A stretch of 64,000 nt of DNA from Candidatus Dojkabacteria bacterium (GCA_016927655.1 JAFGMG010000012.1:42618-106617); one strand, 5' to 3'. Positions 11,714-41,595 are shown, counted from the stretch's first letter. The notes: generated by a model not told the origin, from the letters alone. Numbers and translations are program-made.

Positions 11714-12739
11714 CTAGGCTAAATTTATATCTTTTATAATTCGAATAATATTCTGCTGTTCTTCTGACAATCTTTTGAAAATATAGTCTCTGGCAAAATT
11801 TTCTATACCCCAGACTCTAACCAATCCGCCCTCTTCCGGCAAGATAAATCTTTCTATGCGTTTCATCATCCTTTCAAACTCTATTGTTGATTGACCTGGA
11901 CCCTTTATTCTATGCCCCCAGCCTTCAAGCTGGGCTTCTGTTATTTCAACCTTGTATCCGTAGTAATCTGCTAGTTTTTTGTTTTTTGCGCAGGATATGC
12001 CATGAAATCTTGACCGCCAGATATCATCGTACCAGGAAATAAACGGCGACTGCTGATTGAAAGGAGTTTTGTAATAATAGTTTATCCCAAAAGTGAATTT
12101 GTGAATTCTTTCCACATATTTTTGTGCAACTTCGAGGCATTTTTTTATATTTGTACAGCCAGAAGAACTAAGAAGAATTTCCTTCCCAGGAAAAAATTCC
12201 CATATCGTCTCAATCATCTTCTGTATATATTCTTCGCTCATTGTCCATTTTTTCAAACCAAATGCATTGAAAGCTTCATTTTCAGGCTGAATCATCACTA
12301 TATGTCCCAGCTCCTCAGCCGAATACCTGGATTGAAGTTTATTGAGAAGCTCTTCAGAAAAATGAATTGCAACAGCTGCCATATCATCCTCAAGATCAAT
12401 TTCTGTATTATTTGGGGGAATTTTTTCAAGTTTTTTCAATACAACTGCCGGAACATGGCTTTCAGGCCAGCGGAAAGTTTTAATTGGTCCGATATTTAAG
12501 GTTAATTTAATATCAGTATTCAGACAATAGTCCAAGAATGGTTTATAATAATGAAGATCGACTGTTCCATTTTTATCCACCGCCTGATTCCATCTAATTC
12601 CAAGTCGGATATCTTTAATCTCAAATTCTTCACGGACAACCTTCAAAGCTTCTAGGGATTGAAAATAGCTCAAACCTTTAGACTCGAGTTCTTCAGGAGA
12701 GAAACTTGTACCAATTTTTACTCTATTTGTTTTTGTCAT
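11714..12739 (-). CDS. Clan GH-A (GH5-like) TIM-barrel glycoside hydrolase-like protein
   Basis: IRWNQ, IQPENEA (acid/base NE) and EITEAQ (nucleophile TE) motifs. No signal peptide. Embedded in the dcw cluster. Confidence 0.4.
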   Translation of the reverse strand: MTKTNRVKIGTSFSPEELESKGLSYFQSLEALKVVREEFEIKDIRLGIRWNQAVDKNGTVDLHYYKPFLDYCLNTDIKLTLNIGPIKTFRWPESHVPAVVLKKLEKIPPNNTEIDLEDDMAAVAIHFSEELLNKLQSRYSAEELGHIVMIQPENEAFNAFGLKKWTMSEEYIQKMIETIWEFFPGKEILLSSSGCTNIKKCLEVAQKYVERIHKFTFGINYYYKTPFNQQSPFISWYDDIWRSRFHGISCAKNKKLADYYGYKVEITEAQLEGWGHRIKGPGQSTIEFERMMKRIERFILPEEGGLVRVWGIENFARDYIFKRLSEEQQNIIRIIKDINLA

Positions 12740-14508
12740 TAGCCCTTCACTGGAGGGACTCCGAGATAATCTTTTAGATCGATAAATATATCAAGCCACA
12801 AAATTCTAGCACTGTAGTAAGATAAACGCTCTACTGCCTTTGGTTCTTCGAGTTTGACAAGCATAATAAAAGTTTTCTCATCAGAAGCATCAAATCCAAT
12901 ATATGTTGCATTTATGTCACTTGAGTAGCCAGCCCGGTCTTTGTATGGAATTGTCGCCGTACCTGATTTCATTGCGATATTGTATTTGGCAAGTGATTTG
13001 TACCTGCTCTCATCCAAATTCGACTTATAAACCTCGTAAAGCATGTCTTTCAATTTTTGTGCAGTACTAGTCTTTATTGGCTGGCCATTTACGATCGGCT
13101 TGTAAACTCTCTTTTTGCCATTCGCTTCCTCAACTTCAGAAACAACGTATGGAGTCATCAGCTTACCATCGTTTGCCACTGCGCCCACACCCCTAATTGC
13201 TTGAATAGCTGTCATCTGGTATCCGTGTCCAAAAGAATAGGTGGCACTATCTACATTTGTCCACTGATCTAAGTCTTTAAATAGTCCATTTGATTCACCG
13301 GATATATCTATTCCAGTTTTTGTACCAATGCCGAATGCGCTTAAGTATTCATAAAGTTTTTCCGGCCCGATTAGTTTTGATATCTCATAAAGTGCTAGAT
13401 TGTCAGAATTAACAAGGGCTTCAGTTGCAGTCATTCCCCCTCTTGGTTTTTTGTCATATGTACAGATTTCCCAATCCCGTTCTTCTTCTTTCACAGTTGT
13501 ACACCCGCTATGCCCCTTAATAACAACAGTATCCGGCTGAATCACTCCCTGATCAAGAGCTGCTGCTGCTGTAAAGACCTTACCTACAGAACCAAGCTCG
13601 GCAGGATCACTTATTGCAACATTTTTAAAATTATCTGCATTTTCGACTTCATAATATATATTTGGATCGTAGTTTGGATAATTTGCTAACCCCAGGATTT
13701 CGCCGGTTTTAGGATCCATCACAATCACTGTTCCAGATTTAGCGTCGTATTTTTCTACTCCGGCTTTAATATGCTTTTCAATTTTTGCCTGAATATTTTT
13801 ATCAATTGTGGTATGAATAACAGCTCCTCTTCTTGCCTCAATTTGTGCCACGCTGTCTAATGCAATAATATTGCCGAAACTATCAACTTCAGTAAGATTA
13901 AATCCCTCCTGTTCCTTTAGAAGCCCCTCCCAATAGTGTTCCAGCCCTGCACTACCGACAGAATCACCAACATCATTTTTCCCAAGGTATCCAGTCAAAT
14001 GACATGCGAGTGTGTCTTCAGGATAAATCCTCTGCGAAGTATAAGCAACACGAAGACCTAGCAGATTTTGATCAGGATCGTTGTCTCTTTTCAGGTTTAA
14101 AACCTGCTCTTTTGCTTCATAAGGTATCTTGTATTTTATCGTAGTCCAATCATTTCCATCTTCCAATTGAGCTTCAAGATCTGACAGCTCCAAAACAGCA
14201 GATACCTTCGTAATAAATTCCTCTCTTGTTTGTTTCTCATATTTTTCAGCAAATTCAAGTTCTGTCTTGTAAACAATAATATCGAATCTTGGCTCTGAAT
14301 AAGCAAGCGTAGTATTATCTTTTGCTAGTATTTCTCCTCTAAGCTCAGGAATAGACTGGTCCACGATCCTTTCATTGGCCAATGCTACGAACATATCATG
14401 TCTAAAAATCTGCCACCTGATGAGTAATGCAAGATTGAGGATAAAAAACAAGATAAATCCAAAGACAAATAGTTTGTATTTAGTTTCTGAAAATACCTGG
14501 TTTCTCAT
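12739..14508 (-). CDS. ftsI: Penicillin-binding protein, FtsI/PBP2-type transpeptidase
   Basis: N-terminal TM anchor, SxxK motif (GSVGKVFT) and KSGT motif. 589 aa. Confidence 0.82.
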   Translation of the reverse strand: MRNQVFSETKYKLFVFGFILFFILNLALLIRWQIFRHDMFVALANERIVDQSIPELRGEILAKDNTTLAYSEPRFDIIVYKTELEFAEKYEKQTREEFITKVSAVLELSDLEAQLEDGNDWTTIKYKIPYEAKEQVLNLKRDNDPDQNLLGLRVAYTSQRIYPEDTLACHLTGYLGKNDVGDSVGSAGLEHYWEGLLKEQEGFNLTEVDSFGNIIALDSVAQIEARRGAVIHTTIDKNIQAKIEKHIKAGVEKYDAKSGTVIVMDPKTGEILGLANYPNYDPNIYYEVENADNFKNVAISDPAELGSVGKVFTAAAALDQGVIQPDTVVIKGHSGCTTVKEEERDWEICTYDKKPRGGMTATEALVNSDNLALYEISKLIGPEKLYEYLSAFGIGTKTGIDISGESNGLFKDLDQWTNVDSATYSFGHGYQMTAIQAIRGVGAVANDGKLMTPYVVSEVEEANGKKRVYKPIVNGQPIKTSTAQKLKDMLYEVYKSNLDESRYKSLAKYNIAMKSGTATIPYKDRAGYSSDINATYIGFDASDEKTFIMLVKLEEPKAVERLSYYSARILWLDIFIDLKDYLGVPPVKG

Positions 14509-14513
14509 GCAAA

Positions 14514-14924
14514 TTAATTATCTGCAGCAATTGTAGAATCAGCAAGCTCAATTTTTTTGACTTGTGTCTGAACTAGACCAAGCTCGCTTCCGGCCTTGGC
14601 TTCGATATCACCACTTATTCTGAGCTCGTTGATCTTTGAGCGTTTTATATCATTTTGAATTTTCAACTCCTCCTGCTCAGCTCTAAGTCTTGATATCTCG
14701 GGCCCATGCACTCCTGCAAGGTCCAGCACTACAAATTGTGCGATTATAAAAACTACTAATAATGTTCCAATTGAGATAGTAATATACCTTTGGAGCTCGC
14801 CTAGATCAAGTCCAGCGCGTCGTTTTCGTCTTTTCATGGGCAGTAAATTTTTTAAAATAGTTAAAGTGCGCTTTGCAATTATTTTGTTTCTCAAGCGCGG
14901 AATACAAGTTCCGAATACTTTCAA
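14514..14924 (-). CDS. FtsL/DivIC-like septal membrane protein
   Basis: Small bitopic coiled-coil protein between rsmH and ftsI. Confidence 0.5.
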   Translation of the reverse strand: MKVFGTCIPRLRNKIIAKRTLTILKNLLPMKRRKRRAGLDLGELQRYITISIGTLLVVFIIAQFVVLDLAGVHGPEISRLRAEQEELKIQNDIKRSKINELRISGDIEAKAGSELGLVQTQVKKIELADSTIAADN

Positions 14925-14957
14925 AACAAAATAATTGCTTCGCCTAGATTTACGAAT

Positions 14958-15887
14958 TCAAGAAGATGTCTTCTCCAGAACTCGCATCTTGGCGGATGAA
15001 CTCCTGGAATTGGCTGCAATTTCCAATTCCTTTGGTTCGATTAATTTGTCAATTTCCCTAGCTTTTCCTGCTTTTACCTTTTCTCTGAAGAAATTTTTTA
15101 CAATTCGATCCTCCCCAGAGTGAAAGCTTATTACAGCTAATCTTCCCTTGAAGCTGAGTGCGTCAAACGCCTGGGGCAGAAACCGGGTCAAGGCATATAA
15201 TTCCTGATTCACCGCGATTCTAAGCGCTTGAAACACTCGTGCTTCAAGGGACTTCGTACGCGAACTCGTGCTTAAAGGCACAGCTTGATAAATTAGCTTC
15301 TTTAGATCTTTAGTTGTCAAAATTGGCTTTTTGGCTCTTTCTTGAATGATTCTTTTGACGAATCTTCTTGAAATCCCCTGCATATCTGCCAACTCATTAA
15401 ATAGTTTAACCAATTCCTTTTCAGTTAAACCATTTAGTAAATCGGCTGCGCTTACCTGCGAATTCTCGTCCATTCTCATATCGAGATTGCTTTCTCCTTT
15501 AATACTGGAACCCTTTTCCTCGTCTTCCAGCTGATCTTGTGAGGTTCCAAGATCCGCTAAAATTTTATTGACTTTCGAAATCTTCAGATTCATCAGAATA
15601 CTTTCTAATTCAGCAAAATTTGAATTTATCAGATAAATTTCGATATTCTTGCTGGTTTTCAAAGAACTTAATGTTTTTGAATTTTCCTTAAATCTTTCAA
15701 TTGCTTTTTTGTCTCTATCAACTCCGATAAATACTGTTTTTTCTTTTGCCTGACTGATACTATTTATCATTGCTTCGAAATGTCCTCCGCCTCCTAAAGT
15801 TGCATCTACTACAGTTTCACCTGGCTGGACATTCAAACTCTCAAGAACTTCATCTAATAAAACCGGTATGTGTTTTGTTTTCTGCAT
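14958..15887 (-). CDS. rsmH: 16S rRNA (cytosine1402-N4)-methyltransferase
   Basis: HIPVLLDEVLESL...VDATLGGGGH is the RsmH/MraW signature. Confidence 0.88.
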   Translation of the reverse strand: MQKTKHIPVLLDEVLESLNVQPGETVVDATLGGGGHFEAMINSISQAKEKTVFIGVDRDKKAIERFKENSKTLSSLKTSKNIEIYLINSNFAELESILMNLKISKVNKILADLGTSQDQLEDEEKGSSIKGESNLDMRMDENSQVSAADLLNGLTEKELVKLFNELADMQGISRRFVKRIIQERAKKPILTTKDLKKLIYQAVPLSTSSRTKSLEARVFQALRIAVNQELYALTRFLPQAFDALSFKGRLAVISFHSGEDRIVKNFFREKVKAGKAREIDKLIEPKELEIAANSRSSSAKMRVLEKTSS

Positions 15888-15896
15888 TTGAAATAT

Positions 15897-16328
15897 TTAA
15901 TCTTTTAATTCGCTTAACCTGTCTCCGATATCTGCTGCATTTTTTGCAATTTCTGCAATCTTTTGATTCCACTTTGCCTCATCCCAGATTTCTACAAAAT
16001 CCTGAATTCCTACAAATATCAAGTCTGTTATTAGTTTTGCATAGTTTTTTAATTGCTCCGGCATTACGAATCTTCCTTGTGCGTCTAGAATGATTTCTCT
16101 TGCTCCTCCTATCAAAAATCTTTTTGTATTTCTAGCATCTGTATTTGTAAAAGGCCTTATTTCGATAGTCTTTATCAATTCCTGCCATCTGCTTTTATCT
16201 ACAATGATCAGACATCCTTCATAGCCTCTTGTGATCATTAATTCTCCTTTGAACTGCTCTCTAAATTCTTTTGGAAGAGCTGTCCTGTTTTTTTCTCCTA
16301 ATTTTGAGCTGTATTCGCCTATTAGCAT
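15897..16328 (-). CDS. mraZ: Transcriptional regulator MraZ
   Basis: MLIGEYSSKLGEKNRTALPKEFRE...; 143 aa with the duplicated MraZ fold pattern. Confidence 0.88.
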   Translation of the reverse strand: MLIGEYSSKLGEKNRTALPKEFREQFKGELMITRGYEGCLIIVDKSRWQELIKTIEIRPFTNTDARNTKRFLIGGAREIILDAQGRFVMPEQLKNYAKLITDLIFVGIQDFVEIWDEAKWNQKIAEIAKNAADIGDRLSELKD

Positions 16329-16490
16329 ATATTTTTCAAGCTAACAATTTGTCAAAGGGCAGTTTAAAAATTTGTGGTGAAAGACGTGTATTAATGCATT
16401 TCGTCTAAGAAGTGTTGTGTAGATTAACTGGTTGTCCAGGCCAGTTGCAGTTTTGTCCAAAAGTAGTTAAGAGTACAATTTTGCAGTTAA

Positions 16491-16516
16491 TCACCACCTT
16501 TCACCACTAGTCACCA
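16491..16516 (-). promoter_or_regulatory. Three TGGTGA direct repeats at exact 10-bp phasing upstream of mraZ (candidate MraZ operator); one more inverted copy at 16375-16380
   Basis: On the plus strand, TCACCA occurs at 16491, 16501 and 16511. MraZ operators are phased GTGG-type direct repeats. Confidence 0.4.
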
Positions 16517-17059
16517 GTATAAAGAAAAGTACGCGGCGGAGCAATGGTATATATACCGGAATCTTCCCGAAAATGGAGGAGAGTATTTTTAGAAGAAAGA
16601 ACCAGTCGTGCAAGAAGATCTTTTATTAGCTTTTGTTTGAACTTCTGGCAAACTAATGCCCATAGAACCTATCTGATATACACACTGATGTTCTTAGTTA
16701 CCAGCCTCTATGGTTCAGGGGAAATGACAGTTACGGATTCACGACAAACAGAAATTGTTAATTCCAGTGGTCTGCTTTTCCCATTTCCTGTTTCTTCTAA
16801 CCCAGGCTTAGAATATCCAAGTGGACATGATTCACCCAACTGACATTGCAGCAAACCCTCTCTTCCCCTTCCTCCACCTCCAGTTGTATATCTTTGAAAA
16901 CAAAACGGCGCCCCCTCTGGACCATACGGACATGCAGTAGACATTTTGGAAAAGTAACTAGCTGATTATCAAATATCAGAGGAGAAAATCAACATACCGC
17001 AACCCTGATTTGCAAAAGAATTACTTTGCGATTAATATTCTTGAGTTGCCTTCATATTT

Positions 17060-18859
17060 TTATGTCAAATCTACCACCAGACCATCTGCAGCGTCTACCA
17101 GTTCTTTGCTTTTCATGATTATTGACTGGGTTTGGGTTCCGCAGTTGAATGCAGCTCGTTCCTGATCGAGTACATCATCGTCAAAATATGTATCAAGTCC
17201 CAGGATATTCCCAAATGGCGGGACACCTCCGACAACGAGCCCGAATCTGTCTTTTATCACCTGCGGATCTTCAAAGCTGTATCTCTGAGCGAGCAATATG
17301 GCCAGTTTCTTCATCTCAAGCTTTTTATTGCCCGGAAGGCAGACCATAATATTTTTCCCATCTTTTTCCCCTTTTAGAATTAGCGCTTTCACGCCCTCTT
17401 CAGGCATTGTACCTCGCACTCTCGCCGAATCTTCACTTGTCGGGGTTGGCTCGTGTTCCTGGTATTCGTATACAAAACCCCTCTTATCAAGGATGCTTTT
17501 AATCTTTGCAACAATATTTTCTTCACCTACTATAACCTCCTGCTTCAAGCCAATTGATGCAACTCTTTTTGTATCTGAAGGGAACAGAACTGCCTCACGA
17601 ATATTTTCAAGACCAAGCAACTGCATTGTAAATCTTTCCAATCCCAAACCAAATCCGCCATGTTTCGGCATTCCATATTTAAAAATTGATAGATAATCAG
17701 TGAAATCCGCAGGATCAAGCTCCTTCATCTTCAGGTTTTCAATCAGCTTCTCATAATTATCAATTCTCTGCCCGCCGCTGCTAACTTCAGCGCCATTGCA
17801 CAAAAGATCGCCATAATTGCAGACTTCTGGATTCTCATCATTTGGCATTGCATAGAATGCGCATTTCGATCTTGGAAACTGAGTCACAAAAACAAAGTCA
17901 ATTCCGTCTTTCTCTTTAACGTAATTACAAATAAATCTCTCGGCCTCCGGAGAAAGATCATTTTCATTACGTTCGTCCGTACCAGTTTCCTTGAAATAGA
18001 GCTCAAGTGCTTCTTTCAGAGTATATCTGGGAATTTTTACTTCGTCTTTAAGTACAGCAGAATTTTCGAACATTTTCAGTTCTTCTGCACATTCTTTCTG
18101 AACTTTTTTATAAATTTGCCTAATCACTTTTTCCTCCCATTCAAGAACATCTTCGAATTTTTCAATAAAGCCGATTTCAAACTCCAGCTGCGTTGCCTCT
18201 GTGATGTGCCTTCTCGTATTTGATTTCTCTGCCCGGAAGCATTTCAAAGTCCCAAAAACACGCTCATAAACTCCCACCATCATCTGTTTATAAAGCTGAT
18301 TTGACTGAGACAATTTCACATCGTGTCCAAAATAATTAACCGTAAAAAGCTCGGCACCACCTTCAGAAGAAGCATTTATAATTGCCGGCCCCATAAACTC
18401 AGTGAATCCATTTTCAATCAAAAACTCCCGATACGCTTCCAAAATTACCCCCTGGACTTTAAAAACCGCAGCAATTTTCTCATTTCGCAAAGTCAATGGT
18501 CTGTGATCTAGAATTGTATCCAGGCTTGCTCTGATTTCCGGCTTATTTACCTCGACAGGCCAAGGACTTGTAACGGGCACTTCAATATTTATCACCGGAT
18601 TGATAATCTCGGCAGCGGATTTGAATTGTGACGAAGCTTGTACATTTCCTTCAATCATTAACACACTTCCCGGCTGTAAATCCTTTACTTTTTCCAATTC
18701 CGCCTTGTCTTGTATTATCACCTGAGTAATCCCGCCTCGATCCCTGATGTGCATGAAATTCACTGCCCCTAGCATCCTTAATGAATGCATCCAGCCTCTA
18801 ATCAATACCTGTTCACCAATATGGGATTTCAATTCATTCGATAATACTCTTTCCATCAA
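17060..18859 (-). CDS. aspS: Aspartyl-tRNA synthetase (archaeal/class IIb type) with a fused C-terminal YbaK/ProX-like deacylase domain
   Basis: N-terminal OB fold. Flipping loop LSQSNQLYKQ, motif 2 FRAEKSNTRRHITEATQLEFE and motif 3 GGFGLGLERF. The last ~150 aa carry GLVVGGVPPFGN, matching the YbaK GYLVGGISPLG signature. Confidence 0.82.
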   Translation of the reverse strand: MMERVLSNELKSHIGEQVLIRGWMHSLRMLGAVNFMHIRDRGGITQVIIQDKAELEKVKDLQPGSVLMIEGNVQASSQFKSAAEIINPVINIEVPVTSPWPVEVNKPEIRASLDTILDHRPLTLRNEKIAAVFKVQGVILEAYREFLIENGFTEFMGPAIINASSEGGAELFTVNYFGHDVKLSQSNQLYKQMMVGVYERVFGTLKCFRAEKSNTRRHITEATQLEFEIGFIEKFEDVLEWEEKVIRQIYKKVQKECAEELKMFENSAVLKDEVKIPRYTLKEALELYFKETGTDERNENDLSPEAERFICNYVKEKDGIDFVFVTQFPRSKCAFYAMPNDENPEVCNYGDLLCNGAEVSSGGQRIDNYEKLIENLKMKELDPADFTDYLSIFKYGMPKHGGFGLGLERFTMQLLGLENIREAVLFPSDTKRVASIGLKQEVIVGEENIVAKIKSILDKRGFVYEYQEHEPTPTSEDSARVRGTMPEEGVKALILKGEKDGKNIMVCLPGNKKLEMKKLAILLAQRYSFEDPQVIKDRFGLVVGGVPPFGNILGLDTYFDDDVLDQERAAFNCGTQTQSIIMKSKELVDAADGLVVDLT

Positions 18860-18893
18860 AGATTTTTAAAAACTAGATTTACCTTCTGAAGTT

Positions 18894-18930
18894 TACCAAA
18901 AAAAGGCGAAGTCTGGAAAACTTCGCCTTT
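18894..18930 (-). terminator. Rho-independent terminator after the 18955..20175 gene
   Basis: Minus-strand hairpin AAGGCGAAGTTTTCCAGACTTCGCCTT followed by TTTTTTTGG. Confidence 0.55.
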
Positions 18931-18954
18931 AAATTACTAATTTTGCTCAACTTA

Positions 18955-20175
18955 TCAGAGTTCGGAGCCATATTCCTCAAGAAGTTGATTGTATTGATCA
19001 ATTTCTTCCTGGGTCATACCCGATGACTGAAGATATAACTGAGTGAAGTATTCCTCTAGACTCACAGCATCACTTGGAACTTCTACTGCGTCCTCAACTT
19101 TATCATAATCCCAAAGCTGGAGATTTAGTGAAAGTGAGGTTCCATCATCAAAATCAAAAGTTGCATTAACTTTATATATGTGGCTGTCTCTTCTTCCGCT
19201 ACATACATCAAGGGTCAGTGTTCCGCCCTCGCCTATTGATGCTAATTCACTATCACTTACTTCCTGCTCCCAGATCTCTGCTCCTTTTGTAGCAAGACCC
19301 TCCATTCCAGATTTATCAAGAGTCATTCTAAAACAGTTTGTTCGAACTCCCTCAATGACCTCATCATCAGTTCTTACCAAAACATCCGCCATTTCATCAC
19401 TATAGATAAATTCCTGAAGCTTTGTCAGATCAGCAGCAGTCATATCAGTTCCACCCACTAAACTGGTTACACTCTGATCTAACCCCAGACTCGAAACTGT
19501 ATCAGCAGATGAGCTTCCATCCATTGAAAGCCATTGCCCAGTTAGTGTAGTTGCATCCATTCCAAGTCCTTGAGCCAATGATGCAGGTAATTCGGATAGG
19601 TATAAGTAAGCTACATCATCTGTGTATCTCATCTCGCCGGCAAAATCCATATCTGCTCCTTGAACAGTATAAGTACCAGTTACGTCTGCATCTATCTGGC
19701 TTTTTTCATTAGCCATCCTTGTGAATCCGGCTACATTCAAATCTACACTGCCATTATCTCCCATATCAGCTGTAAGCGTTGCATCATATCTGAAGTTATC
19801 CGCCTCAAATTTGTCTTTGATCAAAGCCTCGGCCTCAGCTTTTGTATAACCGCTGTCCTCTGTTGCCATATCGGCAAGCATAGAAAAGACGAAGTCATTT
19901 ACATCATCTTGGATAGCTTCATCAGTCATACCTTCTGTAGCAACTGTATTCTCAACAGTTTCTACAACTCCAGAAAATACTGGCACATTTTTATTGCTAA
20001 AAAAAGCATATGCGGTACCACCAAGTAATAGTGCTACCAGACAGCCTCCAACAAGCACACAGCCAAGAATCAGCATTTTCATGCCGGAGCCGGCGCCTTT
20101 TTTCATGGAGGATTTAGGCATTTCTGCAGGGACTGCAGAACCTTCTTCCTTTTCCATAACAGATAAAAGTAACAA
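18955..20175 (-). CDS. Membrane-anchored acidic secreted protein (hypothetical)
   Basis: N-terminal TM helix. D/E/T-rich, 406 aa. Confidence 0.5.
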   Translation of the reverse strand: MLLLSVMEKEEGSAVPAEMPKSSMKKGAGSGMKMLILGCVLVGGCLVALLLGGTAYAFFSNKNVPVFSGVVETVENTVATEGMTDEAIQDDVNDFVFSMLADMATEDSGYTKAEAEALIKDKFEADNFRYDATLTADMGDNGSVDLNVAGFTRMANEKSQIDADVTGTYTVQGADMDFAGEMRYTDDVAYLYLSELPASLAQGLGMDATTLTGQWLSMDGSSSADTVSSLGLDQSVTSLVGGTDMTAADLTKLQEFIYSDEMADVLVRTDDEVIEGVRTNCFRMTLDKSGMEGLATKGAEIWEQEVSDSELASIGEGGTLTLDVCSGRRDSHIYKVNATFDFDDGTSLSLNLQLWDYDKVEDAVEVPSDAVSLEEYFTQLYLQSSGMTQEEIDQYNQLLEEYGSEL

Positions 20176-20231
20176 ATTATATTTTCATAATAGCAAGGAG
20201 AATTTTGGAATGCAAGAATCGGGCCAAATTG

Positions 20232-21467
20232 TTAGCTTCTAATTAATTTGTCGAACAACTCTTGCTGTTGCATTATCTTTGATTCTGTTTCGTTTCTTTG
20301 CTTTACCTCATAGCCGCCGGACTCAAGAGACCTCTTGCTTATGACCAATCTAATTGGATTACCAATGAGATCAGCGTCTGTAAATTTTTCTCCCGCGCTT
20401 GTATCTCTATCATCCCAAAGCACCTCAACCCCTTTTTCCATAAGGTCTTTGTAAAGACTCTCGGACTCGTTTTTCACCTCTTCGTCCTCACCAAGAGAAA
20501 TTAGATGGACCTGGAAAGGAGCCACATTCTCGGGCCAGATAATACCGTTTTCATCATGGAATTTCTCGACAATAACCCCCATAGCTCTGGTGGTCCCGAT
20601 CCCATAACAGCCCATAAATGGGTACTTTTCTTCACCACTTGCGTCAGTAAAACTGAATTCAAAATCTTTCGGATATTTTTGGGCAAGATCGAAAACATTT
20701 CCCACTTCTGCCGCTTTTGCTTTTTGTAATTTTGCTCCGCACTTTTTGCATTCGGCCAGATCTCCTGCAATTTCCTGATTTATGCAAAAGTCACATTTAT
20801 CGCAATATAAAATATCATCTTCACCAGCATCTGTCAGAACCATAAATTCATAAGAAATCTTCTTTGAAAAGCTTCCACCCGAAGCTTCTGTGACTTTTGC
20901 AGTCAATCCAAGTCTCTCAAAGATTTTCTTATAAGCTCCCTTCACTTCCTCATAAAACTTCAAAAAATCTTCAGGGGTTTCATGAAAACTGTACATATCT
21001 TTCATTCCAAATTCTCTGCCCCTCAATATTCCAGATTTGGCTCGAAGTTCGTCGCGGTATTTATTCTGAATCTGATAAACTGCTACTGGCATATCTTTGT
21101 ATGAATTTACGTATTCTTTTAAAAGCGGTGTGACGACTTCTTCTTCGCTCTGACCCAAAGCGTAATCTTTTTCTGTTCGGCTTTTGATTTTGAACAGAAC
21201 ATCAACGCCGTCCCACGCTCCAGTCTGTTTCCAGTTTTCGGAAGGATGAAGTGCAGGCATTTTTATTTCCTGTCCACCGATTGCATCCATTTCTTCGCGA
21301 ATTACATCTTCAATCTTCCTTAGAACTCTCAAGCCTAATGGCAATATGGTATAAACACCAGCCATCAATTGATTTACAAATCCAGCTTTTGTCAAAAGTG
21401 TTGCGTTTATTGTGTCATATTCTTTTGCAGTTTTATCTGTTCTTGTGAACAGCGTAGACATTTTCAT
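20232..21467 (-). CDS. proS: Prolyl-tRNA synthetase (bacterial type, INS editing domain replaced by a Cys4 mini-insertion)
   Basis: Class II motifs (…RGREFGMKDMYSFHE; GCYGIGTTRAMG). CDKCDFC...CKKCG zinc-ribbon-like insert. Only 411 aa. Confidence 0.82.
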   Translation of the reverse strand: MKMSTLFTRTDKTAKEYDTINATLLTKAGFVNQLMAGVYTILPLGLRVLRKIEDVIREEMDAIGGQEIKMPALHPSENWKQTGAWDGVDVLFKIKSRTEKDYALGQSEEEVVTPLLKEYVNSYKDMPVAVYQIQNKYRDELRAKSGILRGREFGMKDMYSFHETPEDFLKFYEEVKGAYKKIFERLGLTAKVTEASGGSFSKKISYEFMVLTDAGEDDILYCDKCDFCINQEIAGDLAECKKCGAKLQKAKAAEVGNVFDLAQKYPKDFEFSFTDASGEEKYPFMGCYGIGTTRAMGVIVEKFHDENGIIWPENVAPFQVHLISLGEDEEVKNESESLYKDLMEKGVEVLWDDRDTSAGEKFTDADLIGNPIRLVISKRSLESGGYEVKQRNETESKIMQQQELFDKLIRS

Positions 21468-22033: not shown

Positions 22034-22933
22034 CTAACATAAAACAGCATCGAAATATCTTCTTGCAAGTTCAAACTGCCCCGAAACATCCCCACTTCTG
22101 CGCAATATCTCCAACCTAGTCAATAATTCTACCGGCCCCATTGCTTCAGATCCATCATCAAGAGGCATACGAAATCTTTGATCACTAGCTGCTAGACACA
22201 GATTATTTGGATCTCTCAGCATTTCCAGTTCTAAATTCTTATTAACAGTGCCCTGAGCCAGCACTTGATCAGCACCTGGGACAAAGTAGCAGCTTTTAGC
22301 TAATCTCTGCCTTGCTTCAAGCTCGGGATTTGAAGTATTTCCTGCATTCATTCCAAATCCTGCCCTTATCCAGGGAGGTATCCTTTGGCCGCCAATTTTA
22401 ATATCTGGGATAGTTCTTGTTGCATGTATTTCACTAGGATAATCTTTCAATGCATCTGTCCCAAATTTTTCTGTAACAGCAAATAATTCCACCGTTGTTT
22501 TTTGGGATCCATTGTCCCCGTTTCCTCCTGAGAGTATTTTGTTTCGAATATTCTTGTAAGCTAATAATTTATCCGCAATATCATCTAAAACCAGAAATTT
22601 TCCATTTGGATCTACAGAAGAATCAAGAAAATAATCTCCTTCTCTGCTCTGTGCATCATCAGGAAGCTTTGCAGCAAAAATGATATTAGGCAAATTATCT
22701 GCTGTTATGTCTTTCAGAACATACAAAGCAGGAACAACCCCTCCATTTAGAGGAACAACTAAAGTTGGCATCCTACCGGTTTCGGTCGATATCTCATTAA
22801 TTCTATCTCGGACAGTATTGGAGTATTTATCAAGCACAATATCGACATCCTGCATCCCGGGAACTATCAATAATTCACCATTTAACAGCGACCTATCTTC
22901 TAATTTAGGGATTGGATCCATTATGTATAACAA
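22034..22933 (-). CDS. Hypothetical protein (weak PRTase-like FLVLDDIAD segment)
   Basis: 299-aa ORF. Its composition is somewhat GC- and Arg-richer than its neighbours. Confidence 0.45.
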   Translation of the reverse strand: MLYIMDPIPKLEDRSLLNGELLIVPGMQDVDIVLDKYSNTVRDRINEISTETGRMPTLVVPLNGGVVPALYVLKDITADNLPNIIFAAKLPDDAQSREGDYFLDSSVDPNGKFLVLDDIADKLLAYKNIRNKILSGGNGDNGSQKTTVELFAVTEKFGTDALKDYPSEIHATRTIPDIKIGGQRIPPWIRAGFGMNAGNTSNPELEARQRLAKSCYFVPGADQVLAQGTVNKNLELEMLRDPNNLCLAASDQRFRMPLDDGSEAMGPVELLTRLEILRRSGDVSGQFELARRYFDAVLC

Positions 22934-39354: not shown

Positions 39355-41595
39355 CTAATATGTACAGCTTTCCTGACAGCCTTCAGTACAAGTCATCCCT
39401 GGAGGGCAGTAGAAATCACAATCATTAAAATCGCCGTTGTATTCATCACATTCACTTTCTTCAATTGAGAAACATTTGTTTTCAACAGCAACAAAAGAAC
39501 CCCCATAGTATCCACATATAACACCTGGGGCTGTGCTCCCTTCACCAGAAACACGAATGCTTAATTGACTTGTGCCCCCAGCACCATAGGATACAACCAG
39601 GAAAGTATTGTATGTCCGCACTGATGTGGGAATGAAACCAACTTCAACACTGCAACTTTCACCAGCAGCTATCGTCGGAGTACTACTTCCGCAAGGATTC
39701 GAAGCTCCTTCTGGATTTGTATCCAATGAGAAATTTGAGCTGTCAAGCAGGCTGATACCAGCTATTTCCATCTCCTGAGCAGTTTGATTGGTTATGGATA
39801 TTTCACGAGTGGCAGTTTGTCTTCCAGAAAGCAATGCAGAGAAATTCACAAGAGAGGAACTTGCCCTAACCTCTTCAGGTGAGGCTATACATTCGTACTT
39901 TTCATTGTAGGTTGATACGCCTGCATTGAAATCATTGCAGTCTTTATTATCTGGTATACCAGAAGGGCAAGTGACCGGCTTATTCAAGCTAAGACCCCAG
40001 TTATAATATCCGTCGCCGTCTCTATCCAGACAATCAATACTTCTCGAATTTGCATCAACAATTGGCAATATTAATCCATGCGTCCAGCCAAAGTTTGTGA
40101 TCGGAGTTTTCAAATTTACATATCCGTGATTTCCCCAGGTATTCCCCCAGCTGTTTTTGAATATCCAGACAGGTTCGTCATAAGAGTCAGTATACCAGCC
40201 GACAAGGACCATTGCGTGACTCCAGGAATAAATCCCTCCGCTAACCGGGCCCTGCTCAATTATCAGCTTTTTCAAGTTATCTTCTGTTTTATTTGTGAAA
40301 TCCACCCTTCCGCTGATTTTGATTCGCTCACTTGGGCTTGCACATTTTAAAGAACAAGAGAGATCTCTTGCTGAATATGAAAAGCAGGATTCATTTACTA
40401 CTCCATTGTTTTTAATATAATCCAACGTCAAGCTAGGCCATCCGCCGCTGCATGATCCGGCACCGCTGCAGGAAAGCATATCCTGTTCAGAAAGATCCAG
40501 ATTGACATGCTTATTGTAATAAAGATTAGCCAGAGATTCGGTTGCTCCAACCGCGGCAAACGCCCAGCAGGATCCGCAGCTCGCCTGGTTTTTGACCGCT
40601 GTTATCCATCCATTTCCGGTTTCATTTGAATCTGGATTGCCATCAAAATAAGGCGATGCAGGATTATTGGCCCCATGGACAGTTCTCCAGTCCCAGCTAG
40701 ATGCATAAATTGATGCTCCTTTTACATCACCGTTCATACTTCTTGTTGCCGATGCAAATAGGCCTAATACAGTTTCTGGCAGGTTCGTAATTATGCTTAC
40801 AAGCATAGGTCTTGTAGTAGGCGTTCGCCCACTTGATTCATCTACAACCACTTCCAGGACTCCTCCAACATAAAATTCTGCTCCTTGGAAATTCGGCAGC
40901 TCCTCGGAGTACAATTGAGATTTCTCTTCATAGCTGAGTTCGCCGAAAGCCGTTCTACCGGCCTGCCAGTCATATCCTTTTTCTTCAATCGAATCATTAA
41001 GCTCGGCAATTTTCTCATCAAGAACATCTTCTTTTTTCTGTTCGATTTGTGCCGCTTCAGCCGCAGTTGCCTCGCTCTGATTCATATTGACCTTTGTGAC
41101 TTCTAGACCAGCTCCGTTTTCTGTGTAGACTTCCAGGCTGGCTATTTTTGTTTCCCCAAGTAAACACGTTTCTTCACATTTTTCTTGGACACTGAACTCA
41201 CCCTGTCCATTTAGTAAATAATATGCTTCATAGACAAGATATTTCGTCCCATCATCTGAATAAAGAATTACTCTAGCTAAGCTGTCTTTATTTGGTAAAT
41301 TTACATCCGCATTGATTGTGAGGCCATATATTGTTGCGTCTTTTTCAATTTCGACATCCTGAGTATCACTTTCACTTGTAGGATCTTCTGTAGCAGCCGG
41401 GGTTCCTTCAGATAACTCAGCCTCAATTGATTCTTCTCCAACAGGGATGTCTTCTGGAGTTTGATCTGAATCTTTACCCGCATTGAATAGAAAATAAGCA
41501 AACAGTATTGCCAGTATCAGTAAAAGGTACAACTCCACTTCTAATCGGGGATTATTTTTGATTTCTTTTCTAAACTTTTGAAAGAAATTTGCCAT
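39355..41595 (-). CDS. Large membrane-anchored secreted protein with a papain-like C1 cysteine peptidase domain and Cys-rich C-terminal modules
   Basis: N-terminal TM. QASCGSCWAFAAVGATESL is the papain catalytic-Cys signature. Downstream His/Asn region; 746 aa; Cys-rich tail. Confidence 0.75.
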   Translation of the reverse strand: MANFFQKFRKEIKNNPRLEVELYLLLILAILFAYFLFNAGKDSDQTPEDIPVGEESIEAELSEGTPAATEDPTSESDTQDVEIEKDATIYGLTINADVNLPNKDSLARVILYSDDGTKYLVYEAYYLLNGQGEFSVQEKCEETCLLGETKIASLEVYTENGAGLEVTKVNMNQSEATAAEAAQIEQKKEDVLDEKIAELNDSIEEKGYDWQAGRTAFGELSYEEKSQLYSEELPNFQGAEFYVGGVLEVVVDESSGRTPTTRPMLVSIITNLPETVLGLFASATRSMNGDVKGASIYASSWDWRTVHGANNPASPYFDGNPDSNETGNGWITAVKNQASCGSCWAFAAVGATESLANLYYNKHVNLDLSEQDMLSCSGAGSCSGGWPSLTLDYIKNNGVVNESCFSYSARDLSCSLKCASPSERIKISGRVDFTNKTEDNLKKLIIEQGPVSGGIYSWSHAMVLVGWYTDSYDEPVWIFKNSWGNTWGNHGYVNLKTPITNFGWTHGLILPIVDANSRSIDCLDRDGDGYYNWGLSLNKPVTCPSGIPDNKDCNDFNAGVSTYNEKYECIASPEEVRASSSLVNFSALLSGRQTATREISITNQTAQEMEIAGISLLDSSNFSLDTNPEGASNPCGSSTPTIAAGESCSVEVGFIPTSVRTYNTFLVVSYGAGGTSQLSIRVSGEGSTAPGVICGYYGGSFVAVENKCFSIEESECDEYNGDFNDCDFYCPPGMTCTEGCQESCTY

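Follow-up and report, generated by a model that had tools for sequence, protein, structure and literature searches.

A conserved INS/YbaK-superfamily editing domain fused to the C-terminus of aspartyl-tRNA synthetase in Candidatus Dojkabacteria

Structure of the AspRS-editing domain fusion gene

The sequence analysed here, hereafter referred to as the window, is a 64-kb stretch of a metagenome-assembled genome (MAG) of Candidatus Dojkabacteria (WS6), which belongs to the Candidate Phyla Radiation (CPR). On its minus strand lies an open reading frame (ORF), aspS, in which an archaeal-type aspartyl-tRNA synthetase (AspRS) is continued at its C-terminus by an editing domain of the INS/YbaK superfamily. 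The gene is composed of the following features, with amino acid (aa) positions counted along the fusion protein:

17060..18859 (-): AspRS-editing domain fusion ORF; stop codon at 17060-17062; 599 aa if counted from the TTG at 18859
18590..18808 (-): OB-fold anticodon-binding domain at the AspRS N-terminus (aa 18-90); PF01336, 41.5 bits
17573..18520 (-): class IIb catalytic core of an archaeal-type AspRS (aa 114-429); PF00152, 257 bits
17525..17572 (-): linker (~aa 430-445) joining the AspRS C-terminus, FPSDxKR[IV]A, to the editing domain; low confidence (pLDDT) in the AlphaFold2 (AF2) model
17063..17524 (-): INS/YbaK-superfamily aminoacyl-tRNA editing domain, YeaK/ProXp-ST1-like (aa 446-599); PF04073

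The ORF is open throughout and encodes a single 599-aa protein without interruption, the true start of which is probably the ATG at 18856, since the homologous proteins begin with MER…. Its product comprises an intact archaeal-type AspRS, a ~15-aa linker of low model confidence and a 154-aa PF04073 editing domain. All of the best 120 whole-protein homologues in the databases (120/120; 50-87% identity, from many independent assemblies) share this three-domain architecture, and their total length is tightly maintained at 594-620 aa, mostly 595-604 aa; the named members among them are Dojkabacteria and one 'Parachlamydiaceae'. A frameshift or mis-assembly as the source of the fusion is ruled out by the continuous ORF and by the recurrence of the same architecture in independent assemblies, and the fusion is therefore real, as well as old. 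The first-pass annotation of this locus, which had read the domain as fused to AspRS, is thus borne out.

The AspRS part retains the QSNQLYKQ flipping loop (aa 185-192), the FRAE motif 2 (aa 208-211) and a GFGLGLER motif 3, and its catalytic residues are invariant in a 30-sequence alignment. It is matched along aa 1-433 by the 438-position NCBIfam model NF003483, 'aspartate--tRNA(Asn) ligase' (476.4 bits; cutoff 353), while the score against the archaeal-type AspRS model TIGR00458 also lies above the cutoff (369.9 versus 368.4 bits). These matches assign it to an archaeal-type equivalog named 'non-discriminating', the charging of tRNAAsn being suggested by the model name alone. In the AF2 model of the full-length protein, the linker region (aa 428-439) shows pLDDT values below 50 and the whole chain reaches a pTM of 0.56.

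Fold and conserved residues of the editing domain

The Pfam model PF04073 (tRNA_edit) matches aa 469-589 over positions 1-122 of its 123 positions (87.2 bits; E-value: 1.2e-24; cutoff 25.5), and a deacylase-type domain on the AspRS C-terminus, as had been proposed from the sequence, is accordingly present. The motifs quoted in that proposal are all found, including the YbaK-type signature GLVVGGVPPFGN at aa 540-551. Two elements of the putative active site can be located:

17387..17389 (-): codon for Lys491, the equivalent of the catalytic Lys in INS, YbaK and ProXp enzymes
17210..17230 (-): GGVPPFG loop (aa 544-550), with G544…P548 forming the superfamily GXXXP motif

The position of Lys491 is occupied by Lys in 32/32 AspRS-fused and 121/121 free representatives, and in 5/5 exemplars from the PDB. 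Among the same 153 representatives, P548 is found in all and G544 in 152, while G544, P548 and G550 are invariant among the AspRS-fused members. In the 30-sequence alignment, conservation of the editing domain equals that of the synthetase core, and the invariant residues of the domain are H469, T474, S475, R482, G489, K491, E530, G544, P547, P548, G550, F571, N572 and S579. Across the 32 fused and 121 apparently free representatives, H469, T474, S475, R482, K491, G544, P547-G550, F571, N572, G574 and S579 are near-invariant, with T474 being Thr in 133/153 and S475 being Ser in 138/153.

The isolated editing domain is modelled by AF2 with high confidence (pLDDT 95.7; pTM 0.89), and its predicted structure adopts a YbaK-type α/β fold. 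Foldseek comparison against stand-alone INS-superfamily structures yields TM-scores of 0.74 to 0.87 at 15-26% sequence identity (0.78 to 0.87 for 2CX5, 1WDV, 1VKI, 2DXA, 1DBU and 3OP6), and the values against the ProRS INS domain are 0.62 to 0.73. The fold alone thus assigns the domain to no particular family. Taken together with the retained motifs, the C-terminal 154 aa appear to form an INS/YbaK-superfamily deacylase that is capable of hydrolysing aminoacyl-tRNA.

Placement within the INS/YbaK superfamily

A subfamily profile built from 22 members was scored against reference proteins, with the following results:

E. coli YeaK (ProXp-ST1): 94.4 bits
lpg1207 (3OP6): 82.8 bits
APE2540 (1WDV): 55.5 bits
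ProXp-x (2CX5): 52.9 bits
YbaK: 50-52.5 bits
ProXp-ala: 30 bits (exemplars 5VXB/1VJF and human 8HUZ: 30 and 19 bits)
ProRS INS: 25 bits

The top characterised match is thus YeaK (ProXp-ST1), and a profile alignment with hhalign supports the relationship (probability 99.6; E-value: 1e-23; 159 columns). Both share the HE…, (I/V)RGT, G(A/V)KAL, PPF, FN(A/C)G and KS(I/V) motifs, and equivalents of R482, N572 and S579 are present in YeaK, which is, in contrast to the fused domain, a single-domain protein unlinked to synthetase genes in the E. coli region examined. NCBIfam contains no curated YeaK model. The best profile match among solved structures is the uncharacterised lpg1207 of Legionella pneumophila, with which the PPFGNL and FNAG motifs are shared, but which is free-standing and lacks R482, S475 and S579. 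A metagenomic protein of 448 aa (P0151) carries three tandem PF04073 domains and is kin to this Legionella protein. ProXp-x of Thermus thermophilus (TTHA1699; 2CX5/2Z0K), which acts on Abu-tRNAs and weakly on Ala-tRNAPro (PMC11295145), is the top structural neighbour (TM-score 0.85) and the best single-sequence match in the PDB; its profile score is, however, only 53 bits, and it is free-standing and lacks R482, S475, N572 and S579. R482, S475 and S579 are missing from every solved structure compared.

The domain had initially been described as YbaK/ProX-type, a description which holds at the level of the superfamily but not for YbaK or ProXp-ala individually. YbaK itself, a Cys-tRNAPro deacylase, is ruled out, as the scores fall below the curated cutoffs by a wide margin (TIGR00011: 56-60 bits, cutoff 153.25; NF007951: 26-30 bits, cutoff 243) and the domain is fused in-frame to AspRS. 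ProXp-ala, an Ala-tRNAPro deacylase, is likewise ruled out, being by profile the weakest-scoring of the stand-alone editing families. The INS domain of bacterial ProRS, which edits Ala-tRNAPro in cis, shares the superfamily, the fold, the catalytic Lys and the GXXXP loop, and is likewise built covalently into a class II synthetase. It is, however, inserted between motifs 2 and 3, whereas the present domain is C-terminal on a class IIb AspRS and attached through a flexible linker, and sequence similarity between the two is very low. By these profile comparisons the editing domain represents a distinct, uncharacterised subfamily nearest to ProXp-ST1 among the references compared, which may coincide with one of the function-unknown families ProXp-7/8/9, and it bears the signature H-x4-T-S-x6-R-G-T…K…G-x-V-P-P-F-G…F-N-x-G…S.

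Distribution, AspRS backbones and gene neighbourhoods

A pattern derived from an 8-sequence alignment was used to scan one genome per GTDB species, and relatives of the editing domain were found to be encoded in 254 species genomes. Taxonomy and locus architecture are described for the best 80 of these, with neighbourhoods of ±10 kb per match. The loci are mostly from Chlamydiota (Parachlamydiales, Rhabdochlamydia and others), and the remainder belong to Dojkabacteria and, in some cases, to Saccharibacteria/Patescibacteria, together with a small number of MAGs that carry the label Legionellaceae, Verrucomicrobiota or Bdellovibrionales. The editing domain directly follows AspRS without a gap in 74 of the 80 loci and is free-standing in six. 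A gene for AspRS is located within ~3 kb of the free-standing ~160-aa gene in five of these six, and in two of the five, both from Saccharibacteria, a bona fide AsnRS gene is also clustered. A comparable cluster surrounds the fusion gene in a complete Dojkabacteria genome:

L044 7709-13062: AspRS/AsnRS/editing-domain cluster, Saccharibacteria
L075 6452-10471: AspRS/AsnRS/editing-domain cluster, Saccharibacteria
L088 8001-11597: fusion gene and AsnRS cluster, complete Dojkabacteria genome AP024679.1

In AP024679.1, the fusion gene is followed by an unassigned 155-aa ORF and then by the AsnRS gene (501 bits; cutoff 414). As this related genome possesses its own AsnRS, a non-discriminating AspRS is not required there.

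An exhaustive HMMER search of 1.84 billion representative sequences with the domain alone returned 1779 matches, and among the best 150 of these, all of the multi-domain proteins tested by Pfam are AspRS. Survey of the AspRS architectures shows that the fusion recurs, with the editing domain located C-terminally on three AspRS backbones, namely an archaeal-type of ~600 aa, a bacterial-type without the GAD insertion (P0123 and P0147; ~626 aa) and a bacterial-type with GAD (P0169 and P0173; ~746 aa). Of the 35 representatives with N-terminal extensions, 32 carry AspRS (19 archaeal-type and 13 bacterial-type); the other three comprise one with a GmrSD_N domain and two with unassigned sequence. 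The GmrSD_N restriction-endonuclease domain precedes PF04073 in a 286-aa metagenomic protein (P0157), for which a genuine fusion and an error of gene calling are both conceivable. In a rough neighbour-joining tree, which is poorly resolved and in which some of the 'free' sequences may be fragments, the fused domains are spread over several subclades and mixed with free-standing ones, suggesting repeated fusion or fission.

Public annotation of the free-standing relatives is inconsistent and includes 'YbaK/EbsC', 'Ala-tRNA(Pro) deacylase' and 'nondiscriminating aspartyl-tRNA synthetase'. The last of these is a JGI label attached to free proteins of ~160 aa (P0394, P0419, P0421, P0424, P0428 and P0431), and was probably carried over from the fused proteins.

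Proposed function of the fused domain

On balance, we lean towards the interpretation that the domain is an active aminoacyl-tRNA deacylase which is functionally coupled to AspRS and not to ProRS. The AspRS dimer would bind tRNAAsp or tRNAAsn through its OB domain and aminoacylate it, and the deacylase, on its flexible ~15-residue linker, would sample the 3′ end of the tRNA on its way out of the synthetic site, be it that of the same subunit or of the dimer partner. An unwanted ester would be hydrolysed with the help of Lys491 and of the G544-P548 loop, in the manner of other INS-type domains, and the correct product would escape to EF-Tu or GatCAB. Selectivity could arise through kinetic partitioning, in which EF-Tu shields cognate Asp-tRNAAsp and the transamidosome channels Asp-tRNAAsn.

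Two types of substrate are the leading candidates. The first is Asp-tRNAAsn, either produced by a relaxed archaeal-type AspRS in cells that bear AsnRS or escaping the transamidosome; it is the sole 'mischarged' species known from the archaeal-type 'non-discriminating' AspRS class. The second would be a mischarged tRNA of the Ser/Thr type, which is a candidate by analogy, because of the relationship of the domain to ProXp-ST1 (25% identity, with altered pocket positions). A role in Asp/Asn fidelity would be in keeping with the AspRS/AsnRS/editing-domain clusters. The NCBIfam model NF009460 further describes an AspRS-GatC fusion, from which it follows that the AspRS C-terminus can capture partners in Asn-tRNA formation. 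As proposed for the present fusion, the C-terminal appendage there is a partner that acts on the product of AspRS, but the appended module is GatC instead of a deacylase. A more specific version of the proposal is post-transfer proofreading of mis-aspartylated tRNAAsn or of another AspRS error, by which an ancestrally non-discriminating AspRS might be made effectively discriminating, or failures of GatCAB capture might be backed up; we put this forward only as a tentative possibility.

Several points weigh against this interpretation. AspRS is not known to require an editing activity, nor is it known to misactivate any non-cognate amino acid. The full-length AF2 model shows no confident docking of the editing domain on the catalytic core, and with a pTM of 0.56 and a disordered linker it furnishes no structural argument for action in cis. 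Classical Chlamydia are thought to be without AsnRS, such that hydrolysis of Asp-tRNAAsn would oppose an essential GatCAB route; in GatCAB-dependent lineages, the Asp-tRNAAsn candidate therefore needs kinetic partitioning. The free-standing members P0121 and P0122 have no AspRS gene nearby, and the neighbourhood link to AspRS is thus not universal. Finally, the similarity to YeaK amounts to ~25% identity and the pocket positions T474/S475 are K/C in YeaK, so that the specificity of the latter is not transferable to the fused domain.

Alternatively, the domain may be a general trans-editor of the ProXp-ST1 type that clears Ser-/Thr-tRNAs made by AlaRS, ThrRS, LysRS or ValRS, has no special relation to the products of AspRS and is parked on it simply as a way of saving on expression or gaining stability in a small genome. 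A freely acting module would be consistent with the absence of predicted docking and with the flexible linker, many of the relatives are free-standing and the hosts are genome-reduced lineages, while the closest characterised relative, YeaK/ProXp-ST1, is a hydrolase of Ser- and Thr-tRNAs that accepts a broad range of tRNAs (PMC11295145). We nevertheless regard this as an unlikely explanation, as neutral parking would not be expected to return on three AspRS backbones and leave every other synthetase untouched, nor to place the domain in AspRS/AsnRS gene neighbourhoods.

Relationship to the neighbouring prolyl-tRNA synthetase

A gene for prolyl-tRNA synthetase (ProRS) lies 1.4 kb from the fusion gene and is separated from it by a single ORF, which agrees with its earlier description as being two genes away:

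20232..21467 (-): bacterial-type ProRS without INS, 411 aa; context and not a demonstrated partner
20739..20804 (-): CxxC(xxC)…CxxC mini-insert at the usual INS position in ProRS (aa 222-243), reading CDKCDFCINQEIAGDLAECKKC
18955..20175 (-): intervening ORF of 406 aa, predicted to start with a membrane segment at its N-terminus that is followed by an acidic body; no Pfam/NCBIfam match
18902..18930 (-): terminator-like hairpin with a 13-pair stem and a T-run, lying past the 406-aa upstream ORF and ahead of the aspS start

The ProRS, which is 100% identical to NCBI protein JW978_03950, aligns with bacterial-type models as two separate blocks (aa 1-238 and 250-404; TIGR00409: 434 bits, cutoff 306.7) from which the INS segment is missing, and its alignment to 5UCM skips residues 250-411 of the 5UCM chain. 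No PF04073 match was found in this protein, and the first-pass description of a 411-aa enzyme with INS replaced by a CxxC…CxxC mini-insert is confirmed. Of the 120 closest ProRS homologues, 115, spread over many CPR phyla, have the Cys mini-insert, and this Cys knuckle in place of INS resembles a zinc-binding mini-domain that would be typical of CPR ProRS. Several such proteins are named only 'hypothetical' or 'aminoacyl--tRNA ligase-related protein' by NCBI. The intervening 406-aa ORF is not part of the system.

From this proximity, the first-pass annotation had proposed that a helper function for the INS-less ProRS had moved onto AspRS; the domain would then be a trans-editing factor clearing Ala- and/or Cys-tRNAPro that is merely tethered to AspRS. 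In a genome whose ProRS is without INS, some factor must handle Ala-tRNAPro, and no second YbaK-like gene, AsnRS or GatCAB was found within the window, a result of little weight for the genome as a whole. Activity on Ala-tRNAPro is indeed described for ProXp-x and INS relatives (PMC11295145), and the SSB-ProRS-x-x-AspRS-…-MraZ synteny is retained in a close relative (65% identical). It is, however, retained only there. ProRS is found within 10 kb of the editing domain in 0/80 related loci, including at least seven from Dojkabacteria, and in the window itself the terminator-like hairpin separates the genes. ProRS enzymes of ~410 aa without INS are the norm across CPR phyla (Levy-, Beckwith-, Davies-, Magasanikbacteria and others), whereas the AspRS fusion is confined to Dojkabacteria within the CPR and is most abundant in Chlamydiota; INS-less ProRS is therefore far wider in the CPR than the fusion. 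Furthermore, the synthetase to which the domain is fused is AspRS and never ProRS, and the domain does not reach the YbaK cutoffs, ProXp-ala being the stand-alone family against which its score is lowest. The link of the editing domain to ProRS is thus weak, and we consider a ProRS helper function improbable.

A non-catalytic module that binds or chaperones tRNA, for example by holding Asp-tRNAAsn for GatCAB after loss of hydrolysis, is very improbable, for although appended synthetase domains generally often serve tRNA binding and AspRS-GatC fusions exist (NF009460), the catalytic Lys and GXXXP loop are strictly conserved among the 153 fused and free representatives, which is the pattern expected of an active enzyme.

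Comparison with known synthetase editing systems and implications

The architecture was considered unusual when the locus was first annotated, and searches of the literature open to full-text searching recovered no paper describing an AspRS-INS/YbaK fusion. We know of no AspRS with an editing domain, AspRS being regarded as an enzyme that needs no proofreading. The fused sequences are already present in public databases, where they are annotated plainly as 'aspartate--tRNA(Asn) ligase'. What is new is the occurrence of a known deacylase superfamily in a new and widely conserved synthetase context, along with the definition of a large uncharacterised INS subfamily.

According to a 2024 review, seven synthetase families possess editing domains, and the INS superfamily is made up of single-domain proteins with the exception of the ProRS INS domain, yet a ProXp-ala-ProRS fusion and a plant C-terminal extension are also described (PMC11295145). 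In Plasmodium and Trypanosoma, ProXp-ala is fused to the N-terminus of ProRS (PMC11295145). This resembles the present case in that an INS-superfamily trans-editing module is covalently joined to a synthetase, but the partner there is the erring synthetase, ProRS, whereas here it is AspRS, and among the stand-alone families ProXp-ala lies farthest away (30 bits).

The presence of a conserved and apparently active deacylase on AspRS in hundreds of species points to an AspRS error that has gone unrecognised, or alternatively to a proofreading layer on the indirect Asn-tRNA pathway or a new deployment of a broad-spectrum editor. If the products of AspRS are indeed proofread by the active deacylase favoured above, AspRS would become the eighth synthetase family with a dedicated editing domain, and Chlamydiota and several CPR phyla would thereby solve the Asp/Asn decoding problem in a new way.

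Additional features of the window

The aspS gene is located just upstream of a cell-division cluster, and the same MraZ neighbourhood is observed in locus L087. By sequence appearance, the region 12739-16328 (-) resembles the head of a division and cell wall (dcw) cluster (mraZ, rsmH, ftsL-like and PBP/FtsI), upstream of which MurA-like (PF00275) and Mur ligase genes are found. Between the aspS stop codon and mraZ, ~730 bp (16329-17059) contain no convincing ORF (only one of 99 aa on the plus strand) and no Rfam match, a gap which is unusually long for such a compact genome. Three tRNAs are the only matches in an Rfam scan of the window. A 299-aa ORF at 22034-22933 (-) has no Pfam or NCBIfam match, while the 746-aa protein encoded at 39355-41595 (-) contains a papain-family (C1) cysteine protease domain, a family which is uncommon in bacteria.

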